64,000 nucleotides of DNA from Nitrospirota bacterium (GTDB lineage Bacteria; Nitrospirota; Nitrospiria; Nitrospirales; Nitrospiraceae). The notes beneath the pieces are model-generated. The model was not told where the DNA came from and made no database searches. It worked only from the letters and a program-made list of their open reading frames with translations. The stretch spans positions 384,001-448,000 of the forward strand of contig CAVPBK010000009.1 of assembly GCA_963701855.1 (NCBI GenBank), given 5' to 3'. The stretch's first letter is position 1. Each line of letters starts with the position of its first letter. Shown one piece after another: positions 3,532-21,879 of the stretch. The translations under genes and the position numbers were made by a program.

Positions 3532-5058
3532 TCAGACTGAAATGGCTCCTATTACTTTTCCACCTCTCGCATCACCTCCGGTCACTGTCGAAATTCCAAG
3601 ACTCTTCAATATTTGAATTAACTCCGAGTCGAGCTCCGTCAAGCAAGCAATGCAGAGCATCTCTCGTGGCCGAGTAAACGCCACATATCCAAGTCTGCAT
3701 TTGTCTTGTTTGTCGGCAACGCGAAGTAACGGTTCAGTCTGCAGCCATTTCCTTAACTCCGTGAGGCTTTTCGCAACTACAAGTGCCGCGTCTGCTTGCA
3801 GCCCTTTAGCCTTGCGAATCGAAGAATAGCATTCAGCCGCCTGTGACAAATTCCCTCCACCGAATTCAATGCTGAGACGACATAAGCGGTCTTCGATCAG
3901 GTCAATGCGTGAGTTCGACACTTTGTGGCCAAAGGCATCGAAGACAAGCACCTTAAGTTGTTCAATTCCGTACTGCCCTGCACGAAGCTCTCTGAGTAGC
4001 CGAACGCCAACGGTTCGCAATTGAAGCCGTGTCAACCCCAACTCCTCGCAAATTCTCCTTTGACTGCGATCGAGCGCAAGAGACAAAAGGTCAAGTGCAT
4101 CTCCAAGAAGGGTATTGGTCTTTCGTCCGTCATTCGAGATTGGACTTAATTTGAACTGCTCACGAACAGAGTCGAATGTCGCGTTCTCCTCCGAGAGATA
4201 TAGCCGTGTCCGTTGCTCTTCTTCAATTTCAACATTCTCACTCAACGCCTGATAACGTCGAACGATTTCTTCAAGAGCAGTGGCGGGAATGAAAAGAACT
4301 CTGGGTTCTCCACGATAAGGCTTGACCGGTATTTGCTGTACATCTACGCGAAACTGATTCACAAACGTGACGATTTCTCCATTTGACCGGTGGTTCTCGA
4401 TGATTTGTTGCACTTCGGCCTGCTTTTTGAATCGGAAGAATGGAATTTTGTCGAACGACGGTGGCTTCTTACCCCGATACCCAAAACTCATCACATACTG
4501 CTCAGAATCGCCGACAACATATAGTCTGGTTTTCTCGGCCTTGTGGAAATGTTCAAAAACCTCAAACATTCCAATATCCGTATCTTGAAATTCATCGACA
4601 AAAAGGTACGCAATCCGTCCGCAGATAAGATCTCGCATGCCTGGTGTCTCCAGAACCTGACGAGCTTTCGGGATCATCGAGGAATAGGGAACAATCCCCT
4701 TTTTGATCAGATTCTTCTCGTAAGCAGCGGCCCCTGCTGGTCCTACTTTGTCGTATGGATCAATCGCCACATATATTCGATCTTCAGGAAGTAACTTCAG
4801 AAGTTCCGCGCACGGCATCAGAAGAAATCGATTCACAAAAGAATGGATAGTTCCAACAAAAATATTGCTCGGAACCCTGGGAACTCTTTCAACAAGACGA
4901 TCATGAATAGTGTTCGCAGCCGCGTTAGTGTATGTAACGGCTGCAAGACATCGATGTGGCGGAAGGATTGGAATCGCGGCCACAATTTCGTCGACCATCG
5001 CATGCGTTTTCCCAGCACCAGGACCCGCCTCAGCAAACTTGGGTTTCGGCAACTTCAT
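3532..5058 (-). CDS. gajB: UvrD-like SF1 helicase, Gabija GajB-like
   Basis: AGPGAGKT, VTYTNAAA, GTIHSF, DEFQD, GDSEQ, ENHRS and YVAFTR motifs; short (508 aa); 4 bp downstream of the OLD nuclease. Confidence 0.8.
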   Translation of the reverse strand: MKLPKPKFAEAGPGAGKTHAMVDEIVAAIPILPPHRCLAAVTYTNAAANTIHDRLVERVPRVPSNIFVGTIHSFVNRFLLMPCAELLKLLPEDRIYVAIDPYDKVGPAGAAAYEKNLIKKGIVPYSSMIPKARQVLETPGMRDLICGRIAYLFVDEFQDTDIGMFEVFEHFHKAEKTRLYVVGDSEQYVMSFGYRGKKPPSFDKIPFFRFKKQAEVQQIIENHRSNGEIVTFVNQFRVDVQQIPVKPYRGEPRVLFIPATALEEIVRRYQALSENVEIEEEQRTRLYLSEENATFDSVREQFKLSPISNDGRKTNTLLGDALDLLSLALDRSQRRICEELGLTRLQLRTVGVRLLRELRAGQYGIEQLKVLVFDAFGHKVSNSRIDLIEDRLCRLSIEFGGGNLSQAAECYSSIRKAKGLQADAALVVAKSLTELRKWLQTEPLLRVADKQDKCRLGYVAFTRPREMLCIACLTELDSELIQILKSLGISTVTGGDARGGKVIGAISV

Positions 5059-5062
5059 TGCC

Positions 5063-6991
5063 CTAGTTTCCCTTTATGAAGTCAAACGCCTGAGAAATAT
5101 ATTTGGGAATTGTCAATTTCTTGGGTGGGCGACTGTCCTTCTCTGCAACCTTCTCATCTTCTGCTAGAACGGAGATCAGATTAAAAGCAAACTCGGCCTT
5201 ATGGCTTTCGATTTCGGCGAAGAAAGCATCTACGTTAATGTCATTTGTTCCAGTCTCAGCTCGGAGTTTTGGGCCGTTGCTTGGCTTCGTCATGGTGAGC
5301 GCCAAGAACAGAAGTTCCTTCCCATCACCAACCTTATTCGATGAGACGAGCTCCTTCTCAAATGTACTCTCGGTCGTGACCTGAATTTTGATGTGTGGAG
5401 TATCGTTGAAGTCCGCCTGCAGTGATGCGGCTCGGTTTTCGACTTTTGTCCCTGAGTCACTATCTGTGAGCACCACGCACTTCTTGAAGAAACCATTTTT
5501 CACGATCGTCAGAAAATGTCTAAACGCAATGCCATTCACATTAATAATAGTGCACCCGATACTTTCGAGTGACCTATCTGCATTTTGCTCAAAAAGTTTG
5601 GGGATGACAATTTGCTCTGCAATACCCTCAACGAGAATGAGCCGTCGCGCGAAAAACATTCGAGATTTCGTCGCATCGAGATAAAGACTCAAAAAACGAA
5701 CAGCCGCATCATCTTTTTTAGGGTCGATGTCTTTGAGGACATAGTGTGCGGCAATGGAATCGTCTAAATCTCGCCGAAATAGTACTACCGTATTTGGGAG
5801 AGAAAGCTTCGCCGCCACATGAGTGGAATGCGAGGTCAGAATCAACTGAAGCGACTCGGATTGCCCCTTCCTTATGTCCTCGATGTTTCTGGCTAGGTGG
5901 TCCTGAAGATGCGGATGCAAATGGGCTTCAGGCTCCTCGATTCCAACCAGGCGAAAACAGACAAAGGTATCATCTCCTGCTGAACTATCGGGAGTTTTAG
6001 CCAATTGCGATAGCACAAGTGCCACATAGAGAAGGTTATTCCTACCAAGGCCATTGCGAGCAACCGTAATGGGGTTTGCGCCATAGGTCATCCCGATCTT
6101 CTTTAAGAACTCGGCTGCATCGGGAGCGACAAATTGAAGTCCAACGGAGTGGTTCTCACCTGGAGTATCAAGCGACACACGTACAAGTAATTGCTGAACA
6201 TCAGTCTTGATCGCAACGAGTGAGGGGTCATTATCGATTGCGTTCTTCAGATCGCCAATCAGTCTCTTGATATCTGTGTATCGAGAATCGCTACTCTGCC
6301 GAAGAACGCGAAACAGTAGACGTTGCTCGCCGCCAGCGACCAGTTCTCGCTCTGCGTCACGAAGCGCATCGAGAATCTCAACACGAAGCATTCTTAGCAG
6401 CCAGGATTCGCATTCATTCGAAGGACGTCCGCCTCCGTAGATCGTGTAGCGGTATTCAGCAATCGGGAATTCAACATAGCCACTATATTCCGGCTCCTCC
6501 GAACCAACACCGGGATCTGGATTCGCCTTCTTGTCCTGTGCTTTTCGGTGAGCAATTGCCTCTCGTTGCTCCTTAACCCATCTGTCACACTTGAAGTTCC
6601 CTCTCACTGCGAACCGATATGTCACACATGCCTCGGTCAAATCTGGCTTGCTATACCAGTCACCAACGACAGCGTGCTGGTCATCTTGAATCTTGCTCAG
6701 GGTTGCATGGATCTCTACTTCCGGAAACACAACCTTATCAACGTCAATGGATTGATCGGCGACTTGTTTCTTGAAAGCGATAACAGTCAGGTAATTAATA
6801 TCGTCAATTTCAAGATTCCGATGTTGAATGACAGAGATCTCCTGGCTGAAGAGTAGGGAAATTGCAGCCAGAAGATTCGTCTTGCCGATGTTGTTCTCAC
6901 CTAATATGAGCGTGAACGGTCGCAGATCCATCACAAATGGTGGGTCGCCAAAGTTCCTAAAGTTCTTGATTCTGAGATTGCTCACATACAT
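5063..6991 (-). CDS. gajA: OLD-family ABC-ATPase/TOPRIM endonuclease, Gabija GajA-like
   Basis: IKNFRNF, GENNIGKT (Walker A), IEEPEAHLHP (Walker B), TSHS, and TOPRIM LVEG...TDSD. Confidence 0.85.
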   Translation of the reverse strand: MYVSNLRIKNFRNFGDPPFVMDLRPFTLILGENNIGKTNLLAAISLLFSQEISVIQHRNLEIDDINYLTVIAFKKQVADQSIDVDKVVFPEVEIHATLSKIQDDQHAVVGDWYSKPDLTEACVTYRFAVRGNFKCDRWVKEQREAIAHRKAQDKKANPDPGVGSEEPEYSGYVEFPIAEYRYTIYGGGRPSNECESWLLRMLRVEILDALRDAERELVAGGEQRLLFRVLRQSSDSRYTDIKRLIGDLKNAIDNDPSLVAIKTDVQQLLVRVSLDTPGENHSVGLQFVAPDAAEFLKKIGMTYGANPITVARNGLGRNNLLYVALVLSQLAKTPDSSAGDDTFVCFRLVGIEEPEAHLHPHLQDHLARNIEDIRKGQSESLQLILTSHSTHVAAKLSLPNTVVLFRRDLDDSIAAHYVLKDIDPKKDDAAVRFLSLYLDATKSRMFFARRLILVEGIAEQIVIPKLFEQNADRSLESIGCTIINVNGIAFRHFLTIVKNGFFKKCVVLTDSDSGTKVENRAASLQADFNDTPHIKIQVTTESTFEKELVSSNKVGDGKELLFLALTMTKPSNGPKLRAETGTNDINVDAFFAEIESHKAEFAFNLISVLAEDEKVAEKDSRPPKKLTIPKYISQAFDFIKGN

Positions 6992-7235
6992 GAATCTATT
7001 CCTGCTTCTTCACTATGTCATCTGCGGCGGACTGCTTCCGCTCTACCTAGTCGTCAGGGCAGCTCTGTCTTTTGGAGTGAAAAACAGGCATAAGCTACTT
7101 TTAGCCGAGTACTGTGTCAACACAAGGGGGGCCTAGTTCGCGGAAAAAGTACCCGCCTAGACCGACTTACAAATGTTCCCTCCAAGCTCGCTCGTTTCTC
7201 CCCTCCCCTCTAGGGCGAGCAGTCCGATTTTCAAA

Positions 7236-7336
7236 GGGAGGGTGGCCTGAATCGGTCTCCCACTGCGCGCGTCCAACGAGGCCCTTCCGAGGGCGCGCGT
7301 TGCGCGAGCACAGGAGACCGATCAGGCCGCCCTCCC
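7236..7336. repeat. Palindromic dispersed repeat (copy 1, intergenic)
   Basis: Arms GGGAGGGTGGCCTGAATCGGTCTCC / GGAGACCGATCAGGCCGCCCTCCC enclose the core CACTGCGCGCGTCCAACGAGGCCCTTCCGAGGGCGCGCGTTGCGCGAGCA; the core recurs near 7722 and, split, at 47302/47421. Confidence 0.85.
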
Positions 7337-7341
7337 AGTCC

Positions 7342-7378
7342 CTCTGGAATTTTTCCCTTCCACTCTGGAATTTCTCCC
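7342..7378 (+). promoter_or_regulatory. Tandem putative activator-binding sites
   Basis: CTCTGGAATTTTTCCC and CTCTGGAATTTCTCCC start 21 bp apart, about 100-140 bp upstream of a sigma54 motif; a related pair lies near 47051-47087. Confidence 0.55.
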
Positions 7379-7512: not shown

Positions 7513-8070
7513 ATGGTAGCGCACCCCTCCATCCTCTTGATCGAAGACAGCCCCGGCGAGTGCGAACTGTTTCGCCTGGCACTGATCCAAACCACTTTCG
7601 ATGTCGTCCTCTATACCCAGCATGACGCAGATGCCGCGCTCCACTTCTTACAAGACCGAGTCAGTTATAATCCCAACATCTCCTTCCAATACGCTTCTGG
7701 CGAGACGGCTGGAGTGGGCTCCACTGCGCGCGTCGAACGAGGGCCTTCTGAGGTCGCGCGTTCCGCGAGCAAAGAGACCATGCCAGCTGCCTCGCCCTCC
7801 CTTATCCTGCTCGATCTCAAGCTCGGCCGACGGAATGGTTGCGACTTTTTGATTCGAGTCCGGGCCGATACCCGTCTCTCTGCGATCCCTGTCGTCGTCT
7901 TCACCACATCAGATGACCAGACCGACTTGGCACACTGCTACGCCAACGGCGCGAATGGGTATGTCGTGAAGCCCGGCACGTACGACAAGCTCGTTCACTG
8001 TACCGGCGACATCTGTCGGTATTGGCTGAGATGGAATCGATCCCTCTTAACGGCTGAAACCCGATGCTGA
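7513..8070 (+). CDS. Single-domain response regulator (Rcp1-like receiver) with internal insertion
   Basis: ILLIEDS, LILLDL, VVVFTTS and GANGYVVKP motifs; stop overlaps the RND start (ATGCTGA). Confidence 0.85.
   Translation: MVAHPSILLIEDSPGECELFRLALIQTTFDVVLYTQHDADAALHFLQDRVSYNPNISFQYASGETAGVGSTARVERGPSEVARSASKETMPAASPSLILLDLKLGRRNGCDFLIRVRADTRLSAIPVVVFTTSDDQTDLAHCYANGANGYVVKPGTYDKLVHCTGDICRYWLRWNRSLLTAETRC
7699..7796. repeat. Palindromic dispersed repeat (copy 2), in frame inside the response regulator
   Basis: Arms GGCGAGACGGCTGG / CCAGCTGCCTCGCC enclose CACTGCGCGCGTCGAACGAGGGCCTTCTGAGGTCGCGCGTTCCGCGAGCA. Confidence 0.85.
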
Positions 8071-11000
8071 CCCGCGCTTCGCTCAAAAATCCATACGCCG
8101 TCATCGCGATCAGCCTCATTGTTATCATTCTAGGCGTCGTCTCCTACCAGAAAATGGTGGTGGACATCTTCCCGGAGATCAACATGCCGGTCGTGGCGGT
8201 GGCCACGTTCTATAAAGGCATGGGGCCGTCGGAGGTCGAAGGCGCCATCACATTGCGACTGGAGCAAGCTTTTCTTCAGGCCTCTTACATCGACCACATC
8301 GAGTCTCGTTCCTTGCCCGGTGTCAGTCTCATCAAGATTTACTTCCATTCCTCCTATGACGTAAACGCTGGGCTGGCCGAAATCACCAGCCTCACCTATG
8401 CGAACCTGAAATTTCTGCCGCAAGGGATCTTTCCCCCGATCATCATCAAGTTCGGGGCTGCCAGCTTGCCTATTGCCATCCAGACGACCAGCAGCGAGAC
8501 GATGACGGAGAAGGAAGTGCGGGACCTCGCGTATTTCAACGTACGTCCGCAACTGGGTGGCGTACCAGGAGTCGCGTTCCCAACCACGTTCGGAGGGACG
8601 GTTCGCCAAGTCACGATCTTTCTCGATCCCGAACGCATGCTGGCTCGTGGTGTTTCCACTCACGAGATTGTAAATTCGGTGAACATGCAGAGCGTCCTCC
8701 TGCCGGCTGGGGACGTGAAAATCGGCGACTTCGATTACAACGTCTACACGAATAGCATGATCAAGGTCGTGGACCAAATGAACGACATTCCCATCAAGAT
8801 GGTGAACGGAGTGCCGTTGTTCTTGCGAGATGTGGGGAAAGCCGTGGACTCCACGATGATCCAGACCAACGTAGTACGGATCAATGGCAATAGGGCTGTC
8901 TATCTTCCTATTCTGAAGCAGGCCGGAGCCAACACCATAGCCGTCATCGATGGGATCAAGGAGGTCCTGCCTAAACTGATCAATATTCCGAAGGACCTGG
9001 CGATCAAGTTGTTGTTCGATCAGTCCCTCTATATCCGCCAGGCCATCAAAACACTGGAGCATGAAGGGCTTCTTGGGGGAGGGCTCGCCTGTCTGATGGT
9101 CCTGCTGTTCCTTGGGAGCCTGCGCTCAACCCTCATAGTCGCCATGGCGATTCCACTGTCCATCACGGCCGCTTTCATTGGTCTCTACTTCACCGGCCAC
9201 TCGGTGAACATCATGACGCTCGGCGGATTGGCACTGGCCGTTGGACGGTTAGTCGATGACGCGATTGTCGTCGTCGAAAACTTTCATCGCCATATGGCGA
9301 TGGGAAAGACTTCTTCCCAAGCGGCGGCTGATGCCGTCAACGAAGTGGCTCTCCCCATGCTCATTATCACCATTACGGTCTTCCTCGTCTTCTTGCCCAT
9401 CGCGTTTTTCACGGGCGTGATCAAGTTTTTGTTCGTGCCGCTTGCTCTCGCAGTGGCCTATGCCATGATGGCTTCCTACGTCGTTGCACTGACCCTGGCC
9501 CCTGTTTCGATGGCACGGTTGCTTCGTGACCATGCAAGCCATGCACAGGGAGGGGCTCCTGCCGTGTATCAAGGACGCTTCACCGCGTTCTGGAATCGCC
9601 TCAACATCTTCGACCCATTTGTTGAACGATACGTGCTCCTCCTGCGCTGGTGCTTGGTTCACAAGGTGATCGTGATTGTCACGGTCACGGCAATCTTCGT
9701 CGGCTCCATGTTCATGGCTCCTCTGATGGCGACGGAGTTCTTCCCGAAAGTAGATGCCGGTTCGTTCGTCCTCAACGTCTCGGTTCCTGAGGGCACACGA
9801 ATTGAAAAAACCGAGGCGATCGTGGCCAGGGTCGAGGGGCTCATTCGGGATGCGATTCCCGCGGCAGAGTTGGATCAGATCGTGTCGAACATCGGAGTTC
9901 CGCAGGGCTGGATGGTGCTCTACACACCGGTGAATGGTCCCCATCAGGCCTTCGTGCTCGTGAGTCTGAAGGATGACCATGATGTCCGCACCGATGACAT
10001 CATCATGAAGTTGCGCCAGTCGTTTCGTCGTGAGTTGCCAGGAGTGAAATTCTCCTTCCAGACTGGCGGGATCGTCAGTGATGTGATCAATGCCGGCTTG
10101 CCCGCGCCAATCGATATCAAAGTGAGCGGTCCCAACATGGGGGATCTTGCGGCAACGGCCAACATGGTTCGGGATCTTGTAGCAGCGATTCCCGGCACGG
10201 CAGATGTACAGGTTCGGCAGGGTATGGACTATCCTGAAATTCATCTCGATATCAATCGAGACAAAGCCTCCTTTGTTGGGCTCAATGAGTCTCAGATCGT
10301 GACGGATTTGGTCACCGGGCTCTCGTCAAATGTTACCTTGAACCCCGGCTATTGGATCGATCCCCGGACAAATAATGCCTATTTTGTCGTGACCCAATTT
10401 CCTGAGCAGATCTTGCTGGAGTTCGATGATTTTCTGAACATGCCGCTCGTAGGGACATATGTAGACAAGCCGATGTCGGTCAGTGCCGGTGGTACCAGGC
10501 TCAGGGGCAGTTCATTGGTGCTCACCCAAACACCCTTTCCAGAACAAGTTCGCTTGCCAGGTGTGATCTCGACCGGGGGGAGCCCCGTCCTCCTGCGAGA
10601 TCTGGTGGATGTCGTTCGAAAAGTCGGTCCTGAGACCGTCGATCACTTCAACTTGCAGCGAACGATGGACGTGCTTGTCAGCGTCCCTGGTAACGATCTG
10701 GGGCATATCGCGACTCAGATCGAACAGTCCGTGGCGAAGCTCAAGATTCCGAAGGATGTGGTGCTGACCTTCAAGGGGGAAGTGGACAGTATGCGCGCGG
10801 CGATTTCTGGATTTGCCTGGAATCTGCCGATGGCGATGGTATTGATCTATTTGGTGATGGTGGGGCTGTTTCGTTCCTGGCTCGATCCCTTTGTGGTCAT
10901 GTTTGCCGTCCCGTTGGGATTTATCGGGGTAATCTGGATGTTGCTGCTGACCCATACCTCGGTCAATGTGGAATCGATGATCGGCACCCTGATGATGATC

Positions 11001-11333
11001 GGGATCGTCGTATCTAACAGCGTGCTCCTGGTGGATTTCGCGAATAACAAGTTGCGCGAGGGCATGCCGATCGAGGAGGCCGTTGTGGAGGCGGGGCGTC
11101 TCAGAATCAGGCCCATTCTCATGACGTCACTCGCCACGGTGTTTGGGTTAGCACCGATGGCGCTGGGCATCGGGGAGGGAAGCGAGAGCAATATGCCGCT
11201 CGCGCGCGCTGTGATCGGAGGCTTGACGGTCTCGACGTTTATGACATTACTGTTTATTCCGGTTCTGCACGCGATCGCCCGCCGGCGTTCAGCAGCCGGC
11301 CAGACTGAAACTGAAAGAGGCGAGGTTCGCTGA
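8064..11333 (+). CDS. RND efflux transporter permease (AcrB/CusA superfamily)
   Basis: 1089 aa; VDIFPEI, GRLVDDAIVVVEN, EFFPKVDAG, RIRPILMTSLAT and PLARAVIGGL motifs. Confidence 0.95.
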   Translation: MLTRASLKNPYAVIAISLIVIILGVVSYQKMVVDIFPEINMPVVAVATFYKGMGPSEVEGAITLRLEQAFLQASYIDHIESRSLPGVSLIKIYFHSSYDVNAGLAEITSLTYANLKFLPQGIFPPIIIKFGAASLPIAIQTTSSETMTEKEVRDLAYFNVRPQLGGVPGVAFPTTFGGTVRQVTIFLDPERMLARGVSTHEIVNSVNMQSVLLPAGDVKIGDFDYNVYTNSMIKVVDQMNDIPIKMVNGVPLFLRDVGKAVDSTMIQTNVVRINGNRAVYLPILKQAGANTIAVIDGIKEVLPKLINIPKDLAIKLLFDQSLYIRQAIKTLEHEGLLGGGLACLMVLLFLGSLRSTLIVAMAIPLSITAAFIGLYFTGHSVNIMTLGGLALAVGRLVDDAIVVVENFHRHMAMGKTSSQAAADAVNEVALPMLIITITVFLVFLPIAFFTGVIKFLFVPLALAVAYAMMASYVVALTLAPVSMARLLRDHASHAQGGAPAVYQGRFTAFWNRLNIFDPFVERYVLLLRWCLVHKVIVIVTVTAIFVGSMFMAPLMATEFFPKVDAGSFVLNVSVPEGTRIEKTEAIVARVEGLIRDAIPAAELDQIVSNIGVPQGWMVLYTPVNGPHQAFVLVSLKDDHDVRTDDIIMKLRQSFRRELPGVKFSFQTGGIVSDVINAGLPAPIDIKVSGPNMGDLAATANMVRDLVAAIPGTADVQVRQGMDYPEIHLDINRDKASFVGLNESQIVTDLVTGLSSNVTLNPGYWIDPRTNNAYFVVTQFPEQILLEFDDFLNMPLVGTYVDKPMSVSAGGTRLRGSSLVLTQTPFPEQVRLPGVISTGGSPVLLRDLVDVVRKVGPETVDHFNLQRTMDVLVSVPGNDLGHIATQIEQSVAKLKIPKDVVLTFKGEVDSMRAAISGFAWNLPMAMVLIYLVMVGLFRSWLDPFVVMFAVPLGFIGVIWMLLLTHTSVNVESMIGTLMMIGIVVSNSVLLVDFANNKLREGMPIEEAVVEAGRLRIRPILMTSLATVFGLAPMALGIGEGSESNMPLARAVIGGLTVSTFMTLLFIPVLHAIARRRSAAGQTETERGEVR

Positions 11334-11344
11334 ATGGAGTAGTC

Positions 11345-12535
11345 ATGGAGGGATCATGTATGCTTGCTGAGGGAGCTTCGTGGGGGGATATGACACAGAC
11401 GTCGCGGGTCAAAATCGTCCTAATGGTTGCCGCGGGGCTCTTTCTTCTTGCGGCAGCCTTGATGATAATCCAGGGCCAGTACCCGACAGTGTCCGCACCC
11501 AATACAGATCGGGACTCGGCTCAGTCTTCTGCCCACCAGGTCCAAGTATTGAAAGTGCAACGGCGCGACATTAGCCAGACCCTGACTCTGCCGGCAAATA
11601 TCTCTCCTTGGTACCAAGCCACATTGTACGGAAAGGTCTCTGGCTATGTTAAATGGATCGGCTTCGACAAGGGCGATGTCGTGAAGCAGGGGCAGTTGCT
11701 GGCCGTATTAGATGCGCCCGAGATCGAAGACCAATACAAGCAGGCTGATGCCGATTACCAAATCAAGAAAGTCACGTATGAGCGGTACCTGAGCGTCTGG
11801 CAGGATAATCACGATATCATCGCCAAGCAGGATGTGGATGTGGCCAAAGCCGCGGCTGAATCGGCGAAACATCAGCGAGACAGCCGCCGCACCTTACTGG
11901 AGTACACCAAAGTCTATGCTCCGTTTCCAGGCGTGATCACGGCTCGGTTTGCTGATCCAGGCGCACTCATCCAGTCGGCGACCGGTTCGGCAACGCAAGC
12001 GGCGCCGCTGTTCACGATCATGGATATGGATAGCGTCAGGATCTATGTGAATGCCCCGCAGGAAGCTGCACAGTTGGCGAAACCAGGGCTTCCCGTGACG
12101 ATGACCGCACGTGAATGGTCTGAAGAATTGCAGGCTTCGATCACTCGGACCACCGAGGCCCTGGATCCAGCCACCAGAACATTGCTGGTCGAAATCGATG
12201 TGCCGAACAAAGACCATCGGCTGCAGCCTGGGATGTTCGTCAAGGTGGCGCTCCATCTGCAGCAACATCCGAACGCACTGGCGATTTCTCCCGCCTCCGT
12301 TGTTCCGAGCAAAAACGGACAGGAGAAATCTGTGTTCGTAATCGATTCCGGCAAGGCCAAACTCGTTCCCGTGAAAGCCGGCATTGATGACGGGATCTGG
12401 GTGGAAGTGGTGGAAGGACTGACCGGCGAAGAAGAAGTGGTCGTCGTCGGCAAAAACGGGTTGGTCGATGGGCAGACGGTTCAATCGTCCCCTTACAACC
12501 TTCCAAACGGCAAAGCAGCCAAGCAGAAAATGTAA
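11345..12535 (+). CDS. RND periplasmic adaptor (membrane fusion protein)
   Basis: N-terminal TM; KVSGYV...GDVVKQGQLLA lipoyl-like half; APFPGVIT; LDPATRTLLVE; LQPGMF. Start uncertain. Confidence 0.92.
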   Translation: MEGSCMLAEGASWGDMTQTSRVKIVLMVAAGLFLLAAALMIIQGQYPTVSAPNTDRDSAQSSAHQVQVLKVQRRDISQTLTLPANISPWYQATLYGKVSGYVKWIGFDKGDVVKQGQLLAVLDAPEIEDQYKQADADYQIKKVTYERYLSVWQDNHDIIAKQDVDVAKAAAESAKHQRDSRRTLLEYTKVYAPFPGVITARFADPGALIQSATGSATQAAPLFTIMDMDSVRIYVNAPQEAAQLAKPGLPVTMTAREWSEELQASITRTTEALDPATRTLLVEIDVPNKDHRLQPGMFVKVALHLQQHPNALAISPASVVPSKNGQEKSVFVIDSGKAKLVPVKAGIDDGIWVEVVEGLTGEEEVVVVGKNGLVDGQTVQSSPYNLPNGKAAKQKM

Positions 12536-12581
12536 CATTCACAGAGGGAACGGTCGAGACGTTTTCCGGAGGCGACCCCTC

Positions 12582-14003
12582 ATGCAACAGTCCATCACCA
12601 AAATTTTAATTATCGCACTTATTGCGGGCAGCTCCCATGTCGGTCTCGCACAATCAAGGGAACAGTCGCCATCGGCGGAACCAACTGTATCTCGTCCTGC
12701 CGTAAAACCTGCCGGCTCTCTGCTGCCGCTCGATGAAGCCATCAAAACCGGTCTTGCCACCCATCCGCTGATCGAGCGTTCGCGCTATAGCTTACTCCTT
12801 ACAAAGGCTCTGACCCGTCAAACGCAAGGTGAACGCTATCCCTGGCTTGAAGCCTCCCTCGCCGGAAGCAGCGGTTCTATGCGCATTGTGACAACTGATG
12901 GCAAAGCGATTCACGATCGTGGTGGGCATGGGTTCGATCCGGGCGGCGCGCTCGCGCATCATAACCAGAACATGTTGTCCGGCGGGTTCATGCTCAATCA
13001 ATTGATCTCGGATTTTGGCTACACCGCTCATCGCATTCTCGCAACCGAGGCCAATGAAGCAGCCAGTGAAAAAGAAATTCTGACGAACAAAGCCTTCGTC
13101 ATCCTCAATGTTCAAAGGGCCTATCTCAACTGTTTGCTTCAGAAGAGTTTGGTGACGATCGCGGCTGAGACGGTCAAGCAGCGGCAAGCCGTCCGTGATC
13201 AAGTGCAGGCGCTGTATAAACATCAACTCAAATCGAAAGTCGATCTGGACTTGATGTTGGTGGAAGTCTCGAATGCTGAGCTCTCGCTGATCAAAGCGAA
13301 GAATGAGATCAAACAGTCTTTTGCTGCCTTGAACAACGCGATGGGCATCGAAGGCCCGGACCAGTACGAACTGGAACAAATCCCTATTCGCGTGACTCCA
13401 AGCCAAGCGGTCGACACATTGGTTGCCACCGGGCTCAGCGACCGGCCAGAGCTCCTAGGCAATCGGGACCGTCTGGTCGCCACCGAAGAATTGCTCAAGG
13501 CGGTCAAGGCCTTGAATTTTGGTTCCCTCTCTGCCGTCGGCTCGATCGGCATGACCAAATACGGCGATGTGCATGATAGTGGCATTCCTTCCGATGGCGT
13601 AGCCCCGTTTTGGGGGTATGGCGCCACGATGAAGTTCCCTCTCTTCACAGGATTCAGGATTCAGAGTCAAATCAAAGAGGCCAGCTACCGCAAAGGGGAA
13701 ACGGAAGAAGAACTCCAGAGCCTCGCGAATGAGATCGTCTTGCAGATTGTTCGGGCCTATCTCACCAAGACGACGAATGCCGAGCAAATCGCACTCGAGC
13801 AGGAGCGCGTGACCTTTTCGAAAGAGGCGTTGCTGCTGTCACAAGAGCGCTACCGCCTTGGCTTGAGCCCGATCGTAGAGGTCATCCGCGCGACGGCCGT
13901 GTTGTTCGAATCCGAATCTCGCTTGGCGGAAGCCCGGTATATCTATAAAACCAGTGAGTCAGTGGTCGCCTATGCTACAGGCCAAGAGTACAAACGCTTC
14001 TAG
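12582..14003 (+). CDS. TolC-family outer membrane factor 1
   Basis: Signal peptide; LDEAIKTGLATHP, QLISDFG, PLFTGFR and ERYRLGLS motifs; GGAGG RBS. Confidence 0.9.
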   Translation: MQQSITKILIIALIAGSSHVGLAQSREQSPSAEPTVSRPAVKPAGSLLPLDEAIKTGLATHPLIERSRYSLLLTKALTRQTQGERYPWLEASLAGSSGSMRIVTTDGKAIHDRGGHGFDPGGALAHHNQNMLSGGFMLNQLISDFGYTAHRILATEANEAASEKEILTNKAFVILNVQRAYLNCLLQKSLVTIAAETVKQRQAVRDQVQALYKHQLKSKVDLDLMLVEVSNAELSLIKAKNEIKQSFAALNNAMGIEGPDQYELEQIPIRVTPSQAVDTLVATGLSDRPELLGNRDRLVATEELLKAVKALNFGSLSAVGSIGMTKYGDVHDSGIPSDGVAPFWGYGATMKFPLFTGFRIQSQIKEASYRKGETEEELQSLANEIVLQIVRAYLTKTTNAEQIALEQERVTFSKEALLLSQERYRLGLSPIVEVIRATAVLFESESRLAEARYIYKTSESVVAYATGQEYKRF

Positions 14004-15360
14004 ATGCCTGGCCTGTGTGCTGGTCATCATTACGTGGGGGGTGAACACTTCGCTCGCCGCGGAGCAGATGTCACCCCGTCCCATGTCTGCGGCCGGCACT
14101 CCATTGAGCTGGGAGCAGGCGATTCGAACAGCACTTGAGAAACAGCCGCTCATCAAAATGGCGGAGCATGAGGCCCTGGAATCCCATGCCCTGGTCAAGC
14201 AGATCGAATCAGCCAATTATCCACAAGTAAGCGGCATTGTCTCAAGTACTGCCGGAAACACCAGAGTCCTGGGCAACCTCGGGATCTCAGGCTCACTGCC
14301 AAAACCCACCAACTACCTGACGACTCCCGGCATTCGCGCAGATTACCTCATCACGGACTTCGGTCAGACGGCTCATCGAATTCTCTCTCAGAAGTCGCTC
14401 GCAGCGTCCGCCGAGAAAGCCGTGTTGACTGCCAAAGCACTCACTATCTTGAGCGTGGAGCAGGCCTATCTCAATTGCCTGAAGCAGCAGCGGCTCGTGG
14501 ACATCTCCCGCGAAGTCTTGAATGAACGCGAGTTGATCCGACAACAGACGGAGACGTTCTACCGACGGCAATTGCGATCCAAGTTGGACTTGGATTTTGC
14601 ATCGGTCGAGGCTAATCGGGCAGAAGTGCTGTTGATCAAGGCTCAGAACAACCTTGTATTGGCATTTGCCGCACTGAATACTGCCATGGGTCTGCAGGGT
14701 CCCGGGGACTACCTCTTGGAACAGGCGGTCCTCGTAGTCACGTCTAGCGCAAGTCCTGAATCACTGGTTCAGGACGCGCTGAATCAGCGACCGGAGTTGC
14801 TCGGAAGCAAAGACCGTATACAGGCGGCGGAAGAGGCGCTGCAGGCAGCCAAGGCCCTTCGCTTCGGATCGGTGACCGGGATCGGCACCATGGCCTACAC
14901 CTGGTGGGGCCATGAGGAACGACCCAGCGGAAAAGACGTCAGCAATCCCGGCGCAAAACTGGGATGGTACGGACTTGGCGGGACCAGTTCATTCCCCTTA
15001 TATACCGGCGGCCGCATTGAAGGCCAAATCGAAGAGGCCGATGCCCGGAAAGGCGAGACCCAGGCCACCACTCGATCGATCACCAACGATATCGTGCTGC
15101 AAGTCGCGCAAGCCTATCTCAGCCGGCTGACCGCCGAACAGCAGATTAAGGTTTCGGAAGAGAAGGTCGCCCACGCGCGCGAAGCACTGACCCTCGCTCG
15201 CGAGCGGTACAAAGCCAGCCTGGGCTCTATCCTCGATGTGACGACCGCGACGACCGATCTCTTGAGCGCCGAGGTTGGGCTCGCAGATGCACAGTATGAC
15301 TATCGAGCCAGTGAAGCCGCGCTCGCTTACGCGACAGGAGTTGAATATGCGCGATATTGA
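13972..15360 (+). CDS. TolC-family outer membrane factor 2
   Basis: LSWEQAIRTAL, LITDFG, PLYTGGR and ERYKASLGS motifs; paralogous to both neighbours; start uncertain (13954 or 13972), overlapping the end of OMF1. Confidence 0.9.
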   Translation: MLQAKSTNASRCLACVLVIITWGVNTSLAAEQMSPRPMSAAGTPLSWEQAIRTALEKQPLIKMAEHEALESHALVKQIESANYPQVSGIVSSTAGNTRVLGNLGISGSLPKPTNYLTTPGIRADYLITDFGQTAHRILSQKSLAASAEKAVLTAKALTILSVEQAYLNCLKQQRLVDISREVLNERELIRQQTETFYRRQLRSKLDLDFASVEANRAEVLLIKAQNNLVLAFAALNTAMGLQGPGDYLLEQAVLVVTSSASPESLVQDALNQRPELLGSKDRIQAAEEALQAAKALRFGSVTGIGTMAYTWWGHEERPSGKDVSNPGAKLGWYGLGGTSSFPLYTGGRIEGQIEEADARKGETQATTRSITNDIVLQVAQAYLSRLTAEQQIKVSEEKVAHAREALTLARERYKASLGSILDVTTATTDLLSAEVGLADAQYDYRASEAALAYATGVEYARY

Positions 15361-16786
15361 CTCCACGCGATGGCAGATCGCACGTCGGTTCTCTTGGTGT
15401 CTATGGTGCGTGCTGGTCTTTGCTCTTGTATCCGGCGGAACCTGCTGGTCGGCGGAGCGTGCTTCTGAGGGCCCTGCACAGCCGCTCGCGTACCCGCCAT
15501 CGCCGCATGTTCCTTTATCGAAGGGAGCCTTTCTGGGATACGAGTCCGCGATTCGCATCAGTCTTGATCGTCATCCGCTGCTTCGTCGATCGAAGCAGAC
15601 TGCTCTCGCCGCGGAGGCAGTCACGGATCAGGCGGCGGCTCGCTACTACCCGGAATTGAATGCCTATGCGATTCAGACCGGAGGGACCGTTCGTCCGCTC
15701 AGCGCGTTCAACGTGGGTGGGGCACAGAATAAGCCGACCTCCTACGTGGAAAGTGCGGGATTTCGGGCGGACCAGCTGATTTACGATTTCGGTCAAACTG
15801 CGCACAAAGTGCTGGCGGAGCGGGCTGGCCAGGAGGCGACTGAAAAAGATATCCAGACACACAAGGCGACGGTGATTCTGAGGGTGCAACAAGCCTATAT
15901 CCACTGCCTCCGACAAAAGCGCCTCATCGACATTGCAGAAGAAACCGTGCGGGAACGTGGAGTCCTGCGTGACCAAGTAGCAACTTTGTATAAGCGGGAG
16001 TTGAAGTCCAAACTCGACTTCGACTTCATGTCGGTCGAGCTCAGGAATGCCGAGATTCAGTTGCTCCAAGCCAAGAACGAACTCCGGGCTGCGTTCGCAG
16101 GACTCAACAACGCCATGGGAATCCGGGGCTCAGAAGACTACACCTTGGAGGATCTCCCTACCGCCTCTTCGTCGTCGAGCACACTGGAAACACTGATCAC
16201 TCAGGCACTGGGGGATCGCCCGGAATTACTCGCCACAGAGGATCGGATCACACAGGCGGATGAACGACTCAGTTCGGCCCACGCCTCGAACCTTCCCACG
16301 ATCGCAGCCCAAGGAATGTCGGGCGTTATCCACTTCAGTGATGCCCCGCTGAACCAATATGCCGGTTCACATCCAGGGCAAACCAATCTGTGGTGGGGTG
16401 CAGGAGCCATGGTCTCCATGCCCATATTTACTGGATTTCTGATCGAGAACCGCGTGGCTGAAGCGCGACAACAAAAGTACAAGGCTGAGCAGCGGAAGGT
16501 CGATCTGTCAAACAGAATTGCGTTGGAGGTGATGGAGGCCTACCTGACACTGCAAACGGCCCGGCAACAGATTACCGTCGAGGAGAAGGAAGTTGAGTCA
16601 GCACGCAGTGCGCTCACCTTGGCCAAGGAACGATATCGGCTGGGGCTGTCTTCCATTGTCGATGTCACCACGGCGACCACGGCTCTTTTGCTGTCTGAAG
16701 TTCGACTGTCCGAAGCACGATATGCCGTTCAGGTTGGCATCGCGGCCGTTGCCTTCGCCACCGGGATAGGGTATCAGCAGTTTTGA
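15347..16786 (+). CDS. TolC-family outer membrane factor 3
   Basis: AGGAG RBS inside the 3' end of OMF2; QLIYDFG, PIFTGF and ERYRLGLSS motifs. Confidence 0.9.
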   Translation: MRDIDSTRWQIARRFSWCLWCVLVFALVSGGTCWSAERASEGPAQPLAYPPSPHVPLSKGAFLGYESAIRISLDRHPLLRRSKQTALAAEAVTDQAAARYYPELNAYAIQTGGTVRPLSAFNVGGAQNKPTSYVESAGFRADQLIYDFGQTAHKVLAERAGQEATEKDIQTHKATVILRVQQAYIHCLRQKRLIDIAEETVRERGVLRDQVATLYKRELKSKLDFDFMSVELRNAEIQLLQAKNELRAAFAGLNNAMGIRGSEDYTLEDLPTASSSSSTLETLITQALGDRPELLATEDRITQADERLSSAHASNLPTIAAQGMSGVIHFSDAPLNQYAGSHPGQTNLWWGAGAMVSMPIFTGFLIENRVAEARQQKYKAEQRKVDLSNRIALEVMEAYLTLQTARQQITVEEKEVESARSALTLAKERYRLGLSSIVDVTTATTALLLSEVRLSEARYAVQVGIAAVAFATGIGYQQF

Positions 16787-17537: not shown

Positions 17538-17564
17538 CGATCGAGAGCGAAGAAGGTGATGAAC

Positions 17565-17840
17565 ATGTCGGCGCCACATAAGTTCGATCTGGTCTATACC
17601 GGGAGCGGGCCGGCCAGCCAGCGATCGGCGATTTCATCGGCGAAGATGGGGAAGCGTATCGCGGTCGTTGAATGGAGACGCTTTTTCGGTGTCCATGCGA
17701 TTGGAACCGGTGCAACCAAGGTCATTCACATAGGGCAAGCGATGCTCGATCTGGATGGCGGGACGAATCATTTTCTGCGCACTGTGTTCAACTACCCGAC
17801 GTTGACCGAGTGCTACAAGGTGGCAGCGCTGGATGCGTCA
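17565..17840 (+). pseudogene. Internally deleted sthA paralogue
   Basis: N-terminal FDLVYTGSGPASQRSAISSAKMGKRIAVVE is joined directly to C-terminal GVHAIGTGATKVIHIGQA...VFNYPTLTECYKVAAL; both match the ends of 20479-21879. Confidence 0.9.
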
Positions 17841-17903
17841 CTACACTGTCGCCGTACCACAGGGGCATCAGGCTTGAACGCGGGAAGGAGTGGTGAGTTC
17901 CAG

Positions 17904-18530
17904 GTGTGTCAGTGTCTAAAACAGCCTCGCGTTGAGGGAGTCTTCTTACTTCTGTCGGTCCTTGCCCTGTGTCTGCTCTTCTCAGGATGCACAAGCGTGG
18001 ACACCATCCTCCTGACCAGCGACAGATTTCCCCCCAAGGAGTCTGCGGATGAAGTCGCCGTGCTGGAAGCGAAACCGACCCGACCTCATCGAGAACTCGC
18101 GGAACTGCGGATCGGCGATAGTTGGCTCAGTTTCGGCAGCTTGCAGCGAAAGATCTTGAATCAGGCCGCCACTCTGGGAGCCGATGCAGTGATCTTTGCC
18201 AAACCGCAAACCGTGACTCTGCACGAGGTGGCGTATCAACCGATGTATGATTCGTGGGGCTACGACAGTCCGTATTATGGAACTCCGTGGGGGTATGGGG
18301 GGTATGGCGGTCCTTTTGGGTCGTGGGGCCCGTGGGGTGGAAGCTACTCCGGCAGCGTCGCGGTTCCGTACGACGAGGTCACAAGAATGTTCATGGGAAC
18401 AGCCATCCGTTATACGGAAGCGACAGACTTTGACGATCGCACACAGTCAGGAGAAGCATGGTTACCGAGAAAAGAACCCATCACCAAGGATTCGTCAGAC
18501 GGAGGGGCCGATGAGCCCGTAGAGAAATAG
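17904..18530 (+). CDS. Putative lipoprotein
   Basis: Lipobox LFSGC; AATLGADAVI; Gly/Tyr/Trp-rich low-complexity tract; GTG start approximate. Confidence 0.75.
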   Translation: MCQCLKQPRVEGVFLLLSVLALCLLFSGCTSVDTILLTSDRFPPKESADEVAVLEAKPTRPHRELAELRIGDSWLSFGSLQRKILNQAATLGADAVIFAKPQTVTLHEVAYQPMYDSWGYDSPYYGTPWGYGGYGGPFGSWGPWGGSYSGSVAVPYDEVTRMFMGTAIRYTEATDFDDRTQSGEAWLPRKEPITKDSSDGGADEPVEK

Positions 18531-20334: not shown

Positions 20335-20478
20335 ATGCCAGCAGCCATGCGTGCGAACGAAAAGATCGTGATGGAGACACTGGGTCACTTGGTAGGAATG
20401 CTTGTAGGCGGCAACCAATCTGGTTTCTGCAACGTGACGGAATCAAGTTAGAGCACGCTATGAACCATGGAGGATCCG

Positions 20479-21879
20479 ATGCCTGAGCTATACGATGTTG
20501 ATCTTTTGTGCATCGGGAGCGGGCCCGCCGGTCAACGCGCAGCGATTCAAGCGGCAAAGCTGGGAAAGCGCACAGCGGTGGTGGAGCGGCAACAGATCAT
20601 CGGTGGGGTCTGTGTCGCCACCGGCACGATTCCCAGCAAGACATTCCGGGAAGCCGTGTTGTCCTTCGTCGCTCAAGACACCCTGGGTGATGGGCATCTC
20701 GGCCATCATCTCAAAAGCCGCCCGACTGCGGAGCAGTTGTTGCGGCGCGTAGAAAACGTCATCCAGCGAGAAGCCCAAGTCGTGGAAGATCAGCTTTGGC
20801 GAAATGATATCCCATTGCTTCGGGGAGAGGCTTCCTTCAAAGATCCCCATACGCTGATGGTGGTGTCCGCGCAGGAGTGGCGGACGGTAACGGCGGACAA
20901 GATTCTGATCGCGGTAGGTACCCAACCGGCGATCCCTCGTGGCGTGAACCTGGATGGAGAATTCGTCCTGACCAGTGCTCAGGTCATGCTAATGAAGCAC
21001 TTACCTCGGAGGATGGCGGTGGTGGGAGCCGGGGTTATTGGCATTGAATACGCCTCCATGTTTGCAGCTTTGGAACTCGATGTGACGGTGATTGACAAGC
21101 GGGAACGCCCGCTCGAATTCGTGGATGAAGAAATCGTTGAAGAACTCATGCATCAAATGCGCAATCATGAGGTGACATTCCGCCTTGGCGAGGCCGTGGA
21201 GAGAATAGAAATCGCCGAGGGCCCCCCACGCCACGTTGTCATCCATTTGGAATCCGGGAAAGTGATTGTCTCCGATCTAGTCCTCTTTTCGGCCGGGCGT
21301 GTAGGCGCGACCACTCAGTTGAATCTCACGGCGGCAGGGCTGACCGTAGATCCGCGCGGTTTGCTGACCGTCGACCCGTTGTTTCGGACTCAGGTGCCGC
21401 ATATCTTTGCCGCAGGGGATATCATTGGCTATCCCAGCTTAGCGGCGACCGCTGCAGAACAAGGCCGCTTAGCCGCCTACTCAGCGTTTGGGGTAGAGTC
21501 GAAACCCATGGCCACCCATTTCCCTGTGGGGATCTATTCGATTCCTGAAATTTCGATGGTAGGAGCTTATGAACATGAATTGACGACCAACAAAGTTCCG
21601 TACGAGACCGGGGTCGCTCGGTATCGTGAAATCGCCCGAGGCCAAATTCTTGGCGACGACAGCGGACTGGTGAAGCTCCTGTTCCATCGAGAAAATCATC
21701 GGCTGCTGGGCGTGCATGCCATCGGCACCGGCGCAACCGAACTGATCCATATTGGGCAAGCGGTCTTAGGCCTGGATGGAGGACTCGATTACTTTCTGGA
21801 CACAGTGTTCAACTATCCCACCCTTGCCGAGTGTTACAAAGTCGCCGCCCTGAACGCCTCGAATAAACTGGCGCGCTAG
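20479..21879 (+). CDS. sthA: Soluble pyridine nucleotide transhydrogenase
   Basis: IGSGPAG, GGVCVATGTIPSK (CxxxxT type), GAGVIGIEYAS, IGYPSLA and VFNYPTLAECYKVAA motifs. Confidence 0.93.
   Translation: MPELYDVDLLCIGSGPAGQRAAIQAAKLGKRTAVVERQQIIGGVCVATGTIPSKTFREAVLSFVAQDTLGDGHLGHHLKSRPTAEQLLRRVENVIQREAQVVEDQLWRNDIPLLRGEASFKDPHTLMVVSAQEWRTVTADKILIAVGTQPAIPRGVNLDGEFVLTSAQVMLMKHLPRRMAVVGAGVIGIEYASMFAALELDVTVIDKRERPLEFVDEEIVEELMHQMRNHEVTFRLGEAVERIEIAEGPPRHVVIHLESGKVIVSDLVLFSAGRVGATTQLNLTAAGLTVDPRGLLTVDPLFRTQVPHIFAAGDIIGYPSLAATAAEQGRLAAYSAFGVESKPMATHFPVGIYSIPEISMVGAYEHELTTNKVPYETGVARYREIARGQILGDDSGLVKLLFHRENHRLLGVHAIGTGATELIHIGQAVLGLDGGLDYFLDTVFNYPTLAECYKVAALNASNKLAR

Follow-up and report, generated by a model that had tools for sequence, protein, structure and literature searches.

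The outer membrane factors (OMFs) of the TolC family (PF02321), such as TolC, OprM, CusC, VceC, CmeC and MtrE, have two OEP repeats per protomer, and the described members of the family are trimers of one gene product (PMC8277102). A different arrangement is encoded in a Nitrospirota bacterium of the family Nitrospiraceae (assembly GCA_963701855.1, contig CAVPBK010000009.1, positions 384,001 to 448,000; this whole stretch of 64,000 nucleotides is called the window), where one resistance-nodulation-division (RND) permease gene and one gene for a periplasmic adaptor, or membrane fusion protein (MFP), are followed by three OMF genes, here called A, B and C. The three proteins share with TolC and OprM the two OEP repeats, the helical tip motifs and, in the model of A, the fold; they differ in being three paralogues kept as a unit, with loops specific to each subunit, an Arg/Thr/Thr combination at the putative periplasmic gate and charges that appear to complement each other across subunits. 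The conserved triplet is real, and its products probably assemble into one exit channel, a 1:1:1 heterotrimer for which a fixed ring order is predicted.

Several known systems resemble the locus in part. In MdtABC-TolC a pump component that is normally homotrimeric is likewise made from tandem paralogues, the RND proteins MdtB and MdtC forming a heterotrimer (PMC8277102); there, however, two genes give a heteromeric inner-membrane pump, whereas here a single pump gene is accompanied by three channel genes. Caulobacter RsaFa and RsaFb also provide more than one OMF for one exporter, but they are interchangeable products of two unlinked type I secretion genes, with no fixed triplet, and no heteromer is mentioned in the available part of that report (PMC3034196). 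Intra-ring duplication up to the number of ring subunits is described for the proteasome, MCM, TCP and Lsm (PMC7480870); those are eukaryotic soluble rings, while the present case concerns a bacterial outer-membrane channel with a barrel shared among subunits. A literature search, mostly outside subscription journals, found no described heteromeric channel of the TolC family. A further comparison is offered by sister operons of Nitrospirota with the same gene order and pump subfamily (RND 51-74% identical) and an OMF 36-43% identical to A, B or C; they differ from the triplet in having one OMF gene, a shorter and variable second loop and a Gln gate, and are natural homotrimer controls.

All genes of the operon lie on the plus strand in the order response regulator, RND permease, adaptor, A, B, C. 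A (12582..14003, 473 aa) starts at an ATG at 12582 preceded by GGAGG, a start that agrees with a database product of 473 aa (P0001); B (13972..15360, 462 aa) starts at ATG 13972 or, alternatively, at GTG 13954; C (15347..16786, 479 aa) starts at ATG 15347 downstream of AGGAG. The original prediction, which had read this segment as permease, MFP and three intact, mutually homologous but well diverged OMFs, is borne out by matches to PF00873, TIGR01730 and PF02321: the three OMF genes are intact open reading frames (ORFs), each with two PF02321 (OEP) repeats, and their pairwise identity is 42-44%. The four motifs it had listed (DFG.TAH, LKSK.DLD, RPELL and ATG..Y..F/Y) were also found, with the small variants LRSKLDLD in B and LKSKLDFD in C. 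The genome has 12 other OMF genes, all single (count from a table), so that a tandem triple is not typical of this genome.

The distribution of the triplet was examined at two scales. Profile matches occur in 191 of 371 genomes of the family, and A/B/C-class genes in 38 of them, spanning 14 genus codes (counts from a table), which led to the rejection of an assembly artefact or a recent duplication; the other matching genomes carry a more distant single-type OMF. In a draw of 401 genomes from the phylum, A/B/C-class matches were confined to the family itself. Because only four candidates were scored per genome in the 371-genome table, copy numbers were taken from the loci instead. Ninety-six loci with an A/B/C-class gene were drawn from a pool of genomes and metagenomes after removal of 7 known duplicates, some redundancy between the collections being left. 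Among these, 62 hold A-B-C in order, 33 are ended by a contig edge and one has decayed to a remnant; the searches, which were ranked by likeness to A, revealed neither a fourth copy nor an intact form with one or two of the genes in these loci. Three of the ordered loci (L032, L055 and L047) have one broken OMF, and in L032 and L055 the RND gene is broken too, which suggests assembly error. The remnant (L110:11166-12700) consists of a B fragment and a truncated, frameshifted C; A is missing, a cognate pump is not nearby, and an intact single-OMF operon is present in the genome as well. In one further locus (L083:12404-13254) the gap between the cores of B and C is 850 nt compared with the usual 100-220. 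Ten weakly matching genomes were re-searched and gave one match each at single-type scores, an assignment by score rather than by tree placement. Outside Nitrospirota no triplet was seen in a small sample of 15 more distant loci (L067-L081), tandem OMF arrays of other subfamilies being outside the survey. A variable copy number in relatives, which the original prediction had named as evidence against a heterotrimer, was looked for and does not occur inside the A/B/C clade.

From a phylogenetic perspective, A, B and C are each monophyletic (support 100/100), with (A,B) at 100/96 and A+B+C at 100/99 in an IQ-TREE analysis of 43 rows, and the same clades are recovered in a FastTree tree of 157 rows. 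These trees indicate that A, B and C derive from one triplication with the topology ((A,B),C), apart from the single type. The median ratios of nonsynonymous to synonymous substitution rates (dN/dS) are 0.101, 0.107 and 0.104 for A, B and C, a sign of purifying selection on each gene that led to the rejection of a pseudogene reading. Over 29 complete loci the evolutionary distances of A, B and C correlate with each other at 0.88-0.91, with those of the adaptor at 0.62-0.69 and with those of the RND permease at 0.31-0.34, and A tracks C, two genes off, better than it tracks the adjacent adaptor. Rearranged loci were observed as well: in L054:8019-15450 the ABC block is inverted as a unit, head-on to the RND-adaptor pair; in L151:1-10049 no RND or adaptor gene lies within 6 kb upstream of A; and in L175:2200-2875 C is followed by a short piece resembling an adaptor and by the 3' half of an OMF of the single type, which looks as though a single-OMF operon had given way to the triplet. 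In the sister operons the order is regulator, RND, adaptor and one OMF gene, and some of their pumps fall among or beside the triplet pumps in trees. The three genes thus appear to be inherited as a block, partly independently of the pump; the correlated distances, the inversion in L054 and the remnant in L175 together suggest that the triplet is one exchangeable part that takes the place of one OMF gene.

The fit between the subunits was examined from sequence alone, with a coevolution-derived pair score and a charge score trained on 279 family proteins from outside the A/B/C clade (effective number 170), an earlier coevolution analysis of 166 proteins having been too noisy. Helix H2 stacks on H4, and the A159-S350 link of TolC from H4 to H7 is interprotomer (PMC8277102). 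The couplings of the 279 proteins recover the H2-H7 and H4-H7 registers, and among the recovered column pairs is the equivalent of TolC A159-S350. Opposite charges are strongly coupled at columns 21-335 and 26-329, where they outweigh like charges by 52:5 and 26:3, respectively, in presumed homotrimers. The scores were computed over the 20, 40 or 80 strongest on-register pairs, with held-out non-ABC triples, presumed to be homotrimers, as controls. The ring in which H7 of B faces A, H7 of A faces C and H7 of C faces B was the best arrangement in 41-42 of 45 loci by couplings and in 43-45 by charge (with the top 40 pairs, 41/45 and 43/45, respectively), and the preference persists when the 47 nearest relatives are taken out of the training set (43/45 and 45/45). 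Its margin is attained by 1.4% of 661 held-out presumed-homotrimer triples in couplings and by none in charge; random off-register pair sets attain the charge margin in 0.8%. At 21-335 and 26-329 most B sequences pair like charges when set against B and opposite charges when set against A or C: B against B would place Lys62 on Arg368 and Glu67 on Glu362, whereas the main pairs of the predicted ring are A Glu65-B Arg368, B Glu67-C Lys379 and C Arg81-A Glu377, together with size-matched pairs at columns 190-361 and 25-325. A control on the hairpin of repeat 1, within the protomer, put self pairing on top in 36/45. Paired mutual information over the 45 loci is weakly consistent with the ring (mean on-register z of 0.07-0.17 for the ring, 0.02-0.08 for self and -0.07 to 0.08 for the reverse ring).

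On these grounds it is proposed that a triplication in an efflux operon of the Nitrospiraceae gave rise to A, B and C, which would be exported and fold together to form a 12-stranded barrel of fixed subunit order, with H7 of B on H2/H4 of A, H7 of A on C and H7 of C on B. The channel would dock on the one adaptor through the tip motifs that A, B and C have all preserved and serve the one RND pump, presumed to be proton-driven as RND pumps are, just as the single OMF does in the sister operons. Complementary substitutions at the protomer interfaces may have made A, B and C mutually dependent, and such dependence would explain why no intact subset has been kept. The copy number, which equals the trimer stoichiometry of the family (PMC8277102), was also counted in favour of the heterotrimer. 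That triplets and single-type OMFs replace each other freely on similar pumps speaks for an unaltered basic task of the channel. Of the two options left by the original prediction, a 1:1:1 heterotrimer is therefore favoured, through the clades, the fixed triplet, the block inheritance and the interface score, while swappable channels are disfavoured, most clearly for B; a homotrimer of A would be compatible with the charge-neutral contacts between A protomers.

A number of points weigh against the heterotrimer. All 45 loci go back to a single triplication; the interface result therefore counts as no more than one observation, for which the chance level is roughly 1-2%, and the score is noisy, the homo arrangement being chosen by couplings in 72-78% of the held-out presumed homotrimer triples. 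The within-protomer control of H3 against H6/H8 failed (self chosen in 2/45), and for the hairpin of repeat 2 the couplings were divided 14/18/13, with a leaning to self by charge. When pairs are not selected, the charge signal is present only in H2-H7, H4-H7 favouring self (3.6 vs -0.9), and an off-register shift gave a peak of similar size for the other ring. Inside the clade, 1-3 independent compensatory events can be counted, which is not significant; the pairs 21-335 and 187-365 were spotted by eye before the score was built, although the selection of pairs relied on non-ABC proteins only. The ranking of the locus searches by likeness to A favoured loci that hold A. Finally, homotrimers are the rule of the family (PMC8277102), and in E. 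coli the paralogues of a homomer are about fivefold likelier to remain homomeric (PMC7480870), a prior drawn from paralogues at large and not from operon-linked sets as numerous as the ring subunits. These last two points would favour three independent homotrimers that replace one another on the pump, differing in surface loops and gate so as to suit different conditions or cargo or to evade phage, as would the loops conserved within and different between the clades and the precedent of RsaFa and RsaFb as alternative OMFs of one exporter (PMC3034196). Such homotrimers are nonetheless distinctly improbable: the loss or movement of single genes would be expected of them and was found in none of the 96 loci, the Caulobacter genes are unlinked while A, B and C move as one block, and the B-B and C-C interfaces score as like-charged.

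The absence of a charge clash between A protomers, where 22-333 is an Arg-Glu pair, is also in line with a mixed pool, in which co-assembly would not be strictly 1:1:1, A3 or A2X would stand beside ABC and the triplet would be kept because a damaged paralogue poisons the others. Conservation across the three proteins extends over the tips and the greater part of the helical barrel (65 columns at least 90% identical across A, B and C together), and paralogue interference has been proposed as a retention mechanism (bioRxiv 10.1101/2025.06.13.659495). This explanation is judged unlikely, since in the 3x3 coupling matrix all three self entries lie below, and the three ring entries above, the row and column expectation, and interference alone would permit the clean deletion of a single gene, yet no intact subset is present in the 96 loci. 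As for a recent or neutral tandem amplification that would supply redundant copies for dosage, the tandem layout and the need for both Caulobacter OMFs for full secretion levels (PMC3034196) are compatible with it; it is highly improbable, the tree and the signs of selection having already gone far to refute it, as the paralogues are 42-44% identical while orthologues go down to 55%, with no homogenisation, a fixed order and a dN/dS of ~0.10 for each gene.

If the heterotrimer is confirmed, each protomer of an exit channel could be altered alone, as opposed to the three-fold symmetric mutations of one-protein trimers, and it could be tested whether the gate opens in a concerted manner or protomer by protomer, and how a barrel shared by three subunits is folded. 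Such a channel would moreover give a clean bacterial example of a ring that has turned from homomeric to heteromeric, for which single-gene sister operons with near-identical pumps could serve as controls. With a ring order predicted and residue pairs named, the heterotrimer is cheap to test. Were neutral entrenchment alone at work, the evolutionary interest would remain and the functional novelty would be small.

The conserved loops specific to each subunit suggest that the asymmetry may add a function. An AlphaFold2 model was made for A only, not for B or C (mean pLDDT 76, predicted TM-score 0.68, the loops and the first pair of strands being of low confidence); it matches the OprM/TolC fold with TM-scores of ~0.62-0.65 (E 4e-14). 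By eye, hydrophobic leaders of 40-60 residues, candidates for an N-terminal export signal, precede the OMF core, and the conserved helical tip motifs align with the periplasmic tips of TolC. The surface loops are alike within and unlike between the A, B and C clades: the first loop of A is 12 residues longer and His-rich, an insert present in A only, while the second loop is shorter and more variable in the single-type OMFs. The third barrel strand starts with Gly in A and B and with Pro in all C, all single types and 99% of distant family representatives. Of the TolC gate pair D371/D374, the first position is acidic in A, B and C, whereas the position of D374 is Arg (83%) or Gln (13%) in A, Thr in B (96%) and C (90%), and Gln in the single types; the residues in the present locus are Arg436, Thr425 and Thr442, respectively. 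A double acidic ring of the TolC type is thus lacking, which is no bar to membership of the family, since the composition of the gate ring differs among known OMFs too (PMC8277102). On this basis, the three unlike loops might form an asymmetric lid, and Arg/Thr/Thr might replace an ancestral Gln/Gln/Gln ring at the periplasmic gate. Taken further, an obligate three-gene channel can be imagined with a fixed order, an asymmetric lid bearing the His-rich insert of A, a gate closed by one Arg and not by a symmetric ring, and a function beyond that of a homotrimer, for example ligand-gated opening or subunit-specific coupling to three RND states; this fuller picture is offered tentatively and is rather doubtful as a whole.

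The original prediction had also assigned the channel to a specialised export substrate, and for this no support was obtained. Pumps 67-74% identical to the triplet RND adjoin a single OMF gene, and a survey of the neighbours of the loci revealed no cargo or pathway gene conserved beside the triplet; signalling genes with regulator and kinase domains make up the largest cluster of neighbours, and housekeeping-type neighbours are found mostly at single-OMF loci. Among the loci surveyed, nothing appears to link the triplet to a cargo different from that of the single-gene form.

The RND permease (8064..11333, 1089 aa, plus strand; PF00873, E 4.7e-216) and the adaptor (11345..12535, plus strand, at most 396 aa; TIGR01730, 191.7 bits vs a cut-off of 94.9), whose real start may lie a few codons further downstream, are encoded together with the OMFs, as is typical of a tripartite RND efflux pump. 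The permease scores below the cut-off of every named NCBIfam subfamily (NF033617, 607 bits vs 1250). A heavy-metal assignment of the CusA/CzcA type was rejected (TIGR00914, 423.5 bits vs 701.45), as was a HAE1 drug-efflux assignment of the AcrB type (TIGR00915, 391 vs 940; NF000282, 455 vs 1250). MdtB is its top sequence match in the PDB; a pump of the MdtABC type was rejected, as the window holds a single RND gene and no tandem RND paralogues. The proton relay of AcrB, which consists of Asp-Asp in transmembrane helix 4 (TM4), Lys in TM10, and Arg and Thr near TM11, was compared by eye with the permease: the Asp-Asp, Arg and Thr were found, while residues ~392-406 and ~978-992 have an Arg just before the Asp-Asp of TM4 and a Ser at the position of the TM10 Lys. 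The TM4 Arg is present in 39 of 61 RND relatives, and 18 of the 61 read Asp-Asn-Asn or similar instead, so that two relay variants seem to exist within this subfamily.

With regard to the gene junctions, the ends and starts of the three OMF genes had been taken to overlap as expected for translational coupling. In the window this holds for A/B, with 32 nt (ATG 13972) or 50 nt (GTG 13954) according to the ambiguous start of B, and for B/C, with 14 nt; A does not overlap the adaptor, lying 46 nt after its stop. In relatives, with the start set at the in-frame ATG or GTG closest to the upstream stop, overlaps were counted in 53 of 70 B/C junctions, 18 of 75 A/B junctions and 7 of 63 adaptor/A junctions. 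The B/C overlap is accordingly the sole conserved one, and translational coupling would be conserved for B/C only. Promoter and terminator scans gave nothing above chance level.

Upstream of the pump, a single-domain response regulator (7513..8070, plus strand; PF00072) overlaps the start of the RND gene by 7 nt, and a response regulator lies likewise upstream of several triplet and single-OMF sister operons in the maps of the loci. It contains an in-frame insertion of ~37 residues (7661-7810) that matches a repeat dispersed in the genome, with ~95 further blastn matches, one copy being just upstream at 7191-7350; insertions related to it but differing in length occur at this position in 8 of 17 aligned regulators, of triplet as well as single-OMF operons. 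Directly upstream, on the minus strand, a Gabija defence pair was identified within a stretch of lower GC content at 3532-6991 (GajA, E 1.6e-216; GajB, E 3.6e-122). Downstream of C, an ORF at 17556-18530 has an N-terminus like a fragment of a soluble transhydrogenase fused to an unrelated lipoprotein-like part, and it is followed by a full-length pyridine nucleotide-disulphide oxidoreductase at 20467-21879. Near the start of the window, a match to an astacin-like metallopeptidase (PF01400, E 2e-07) lies at 468-1337 on the minus strand.

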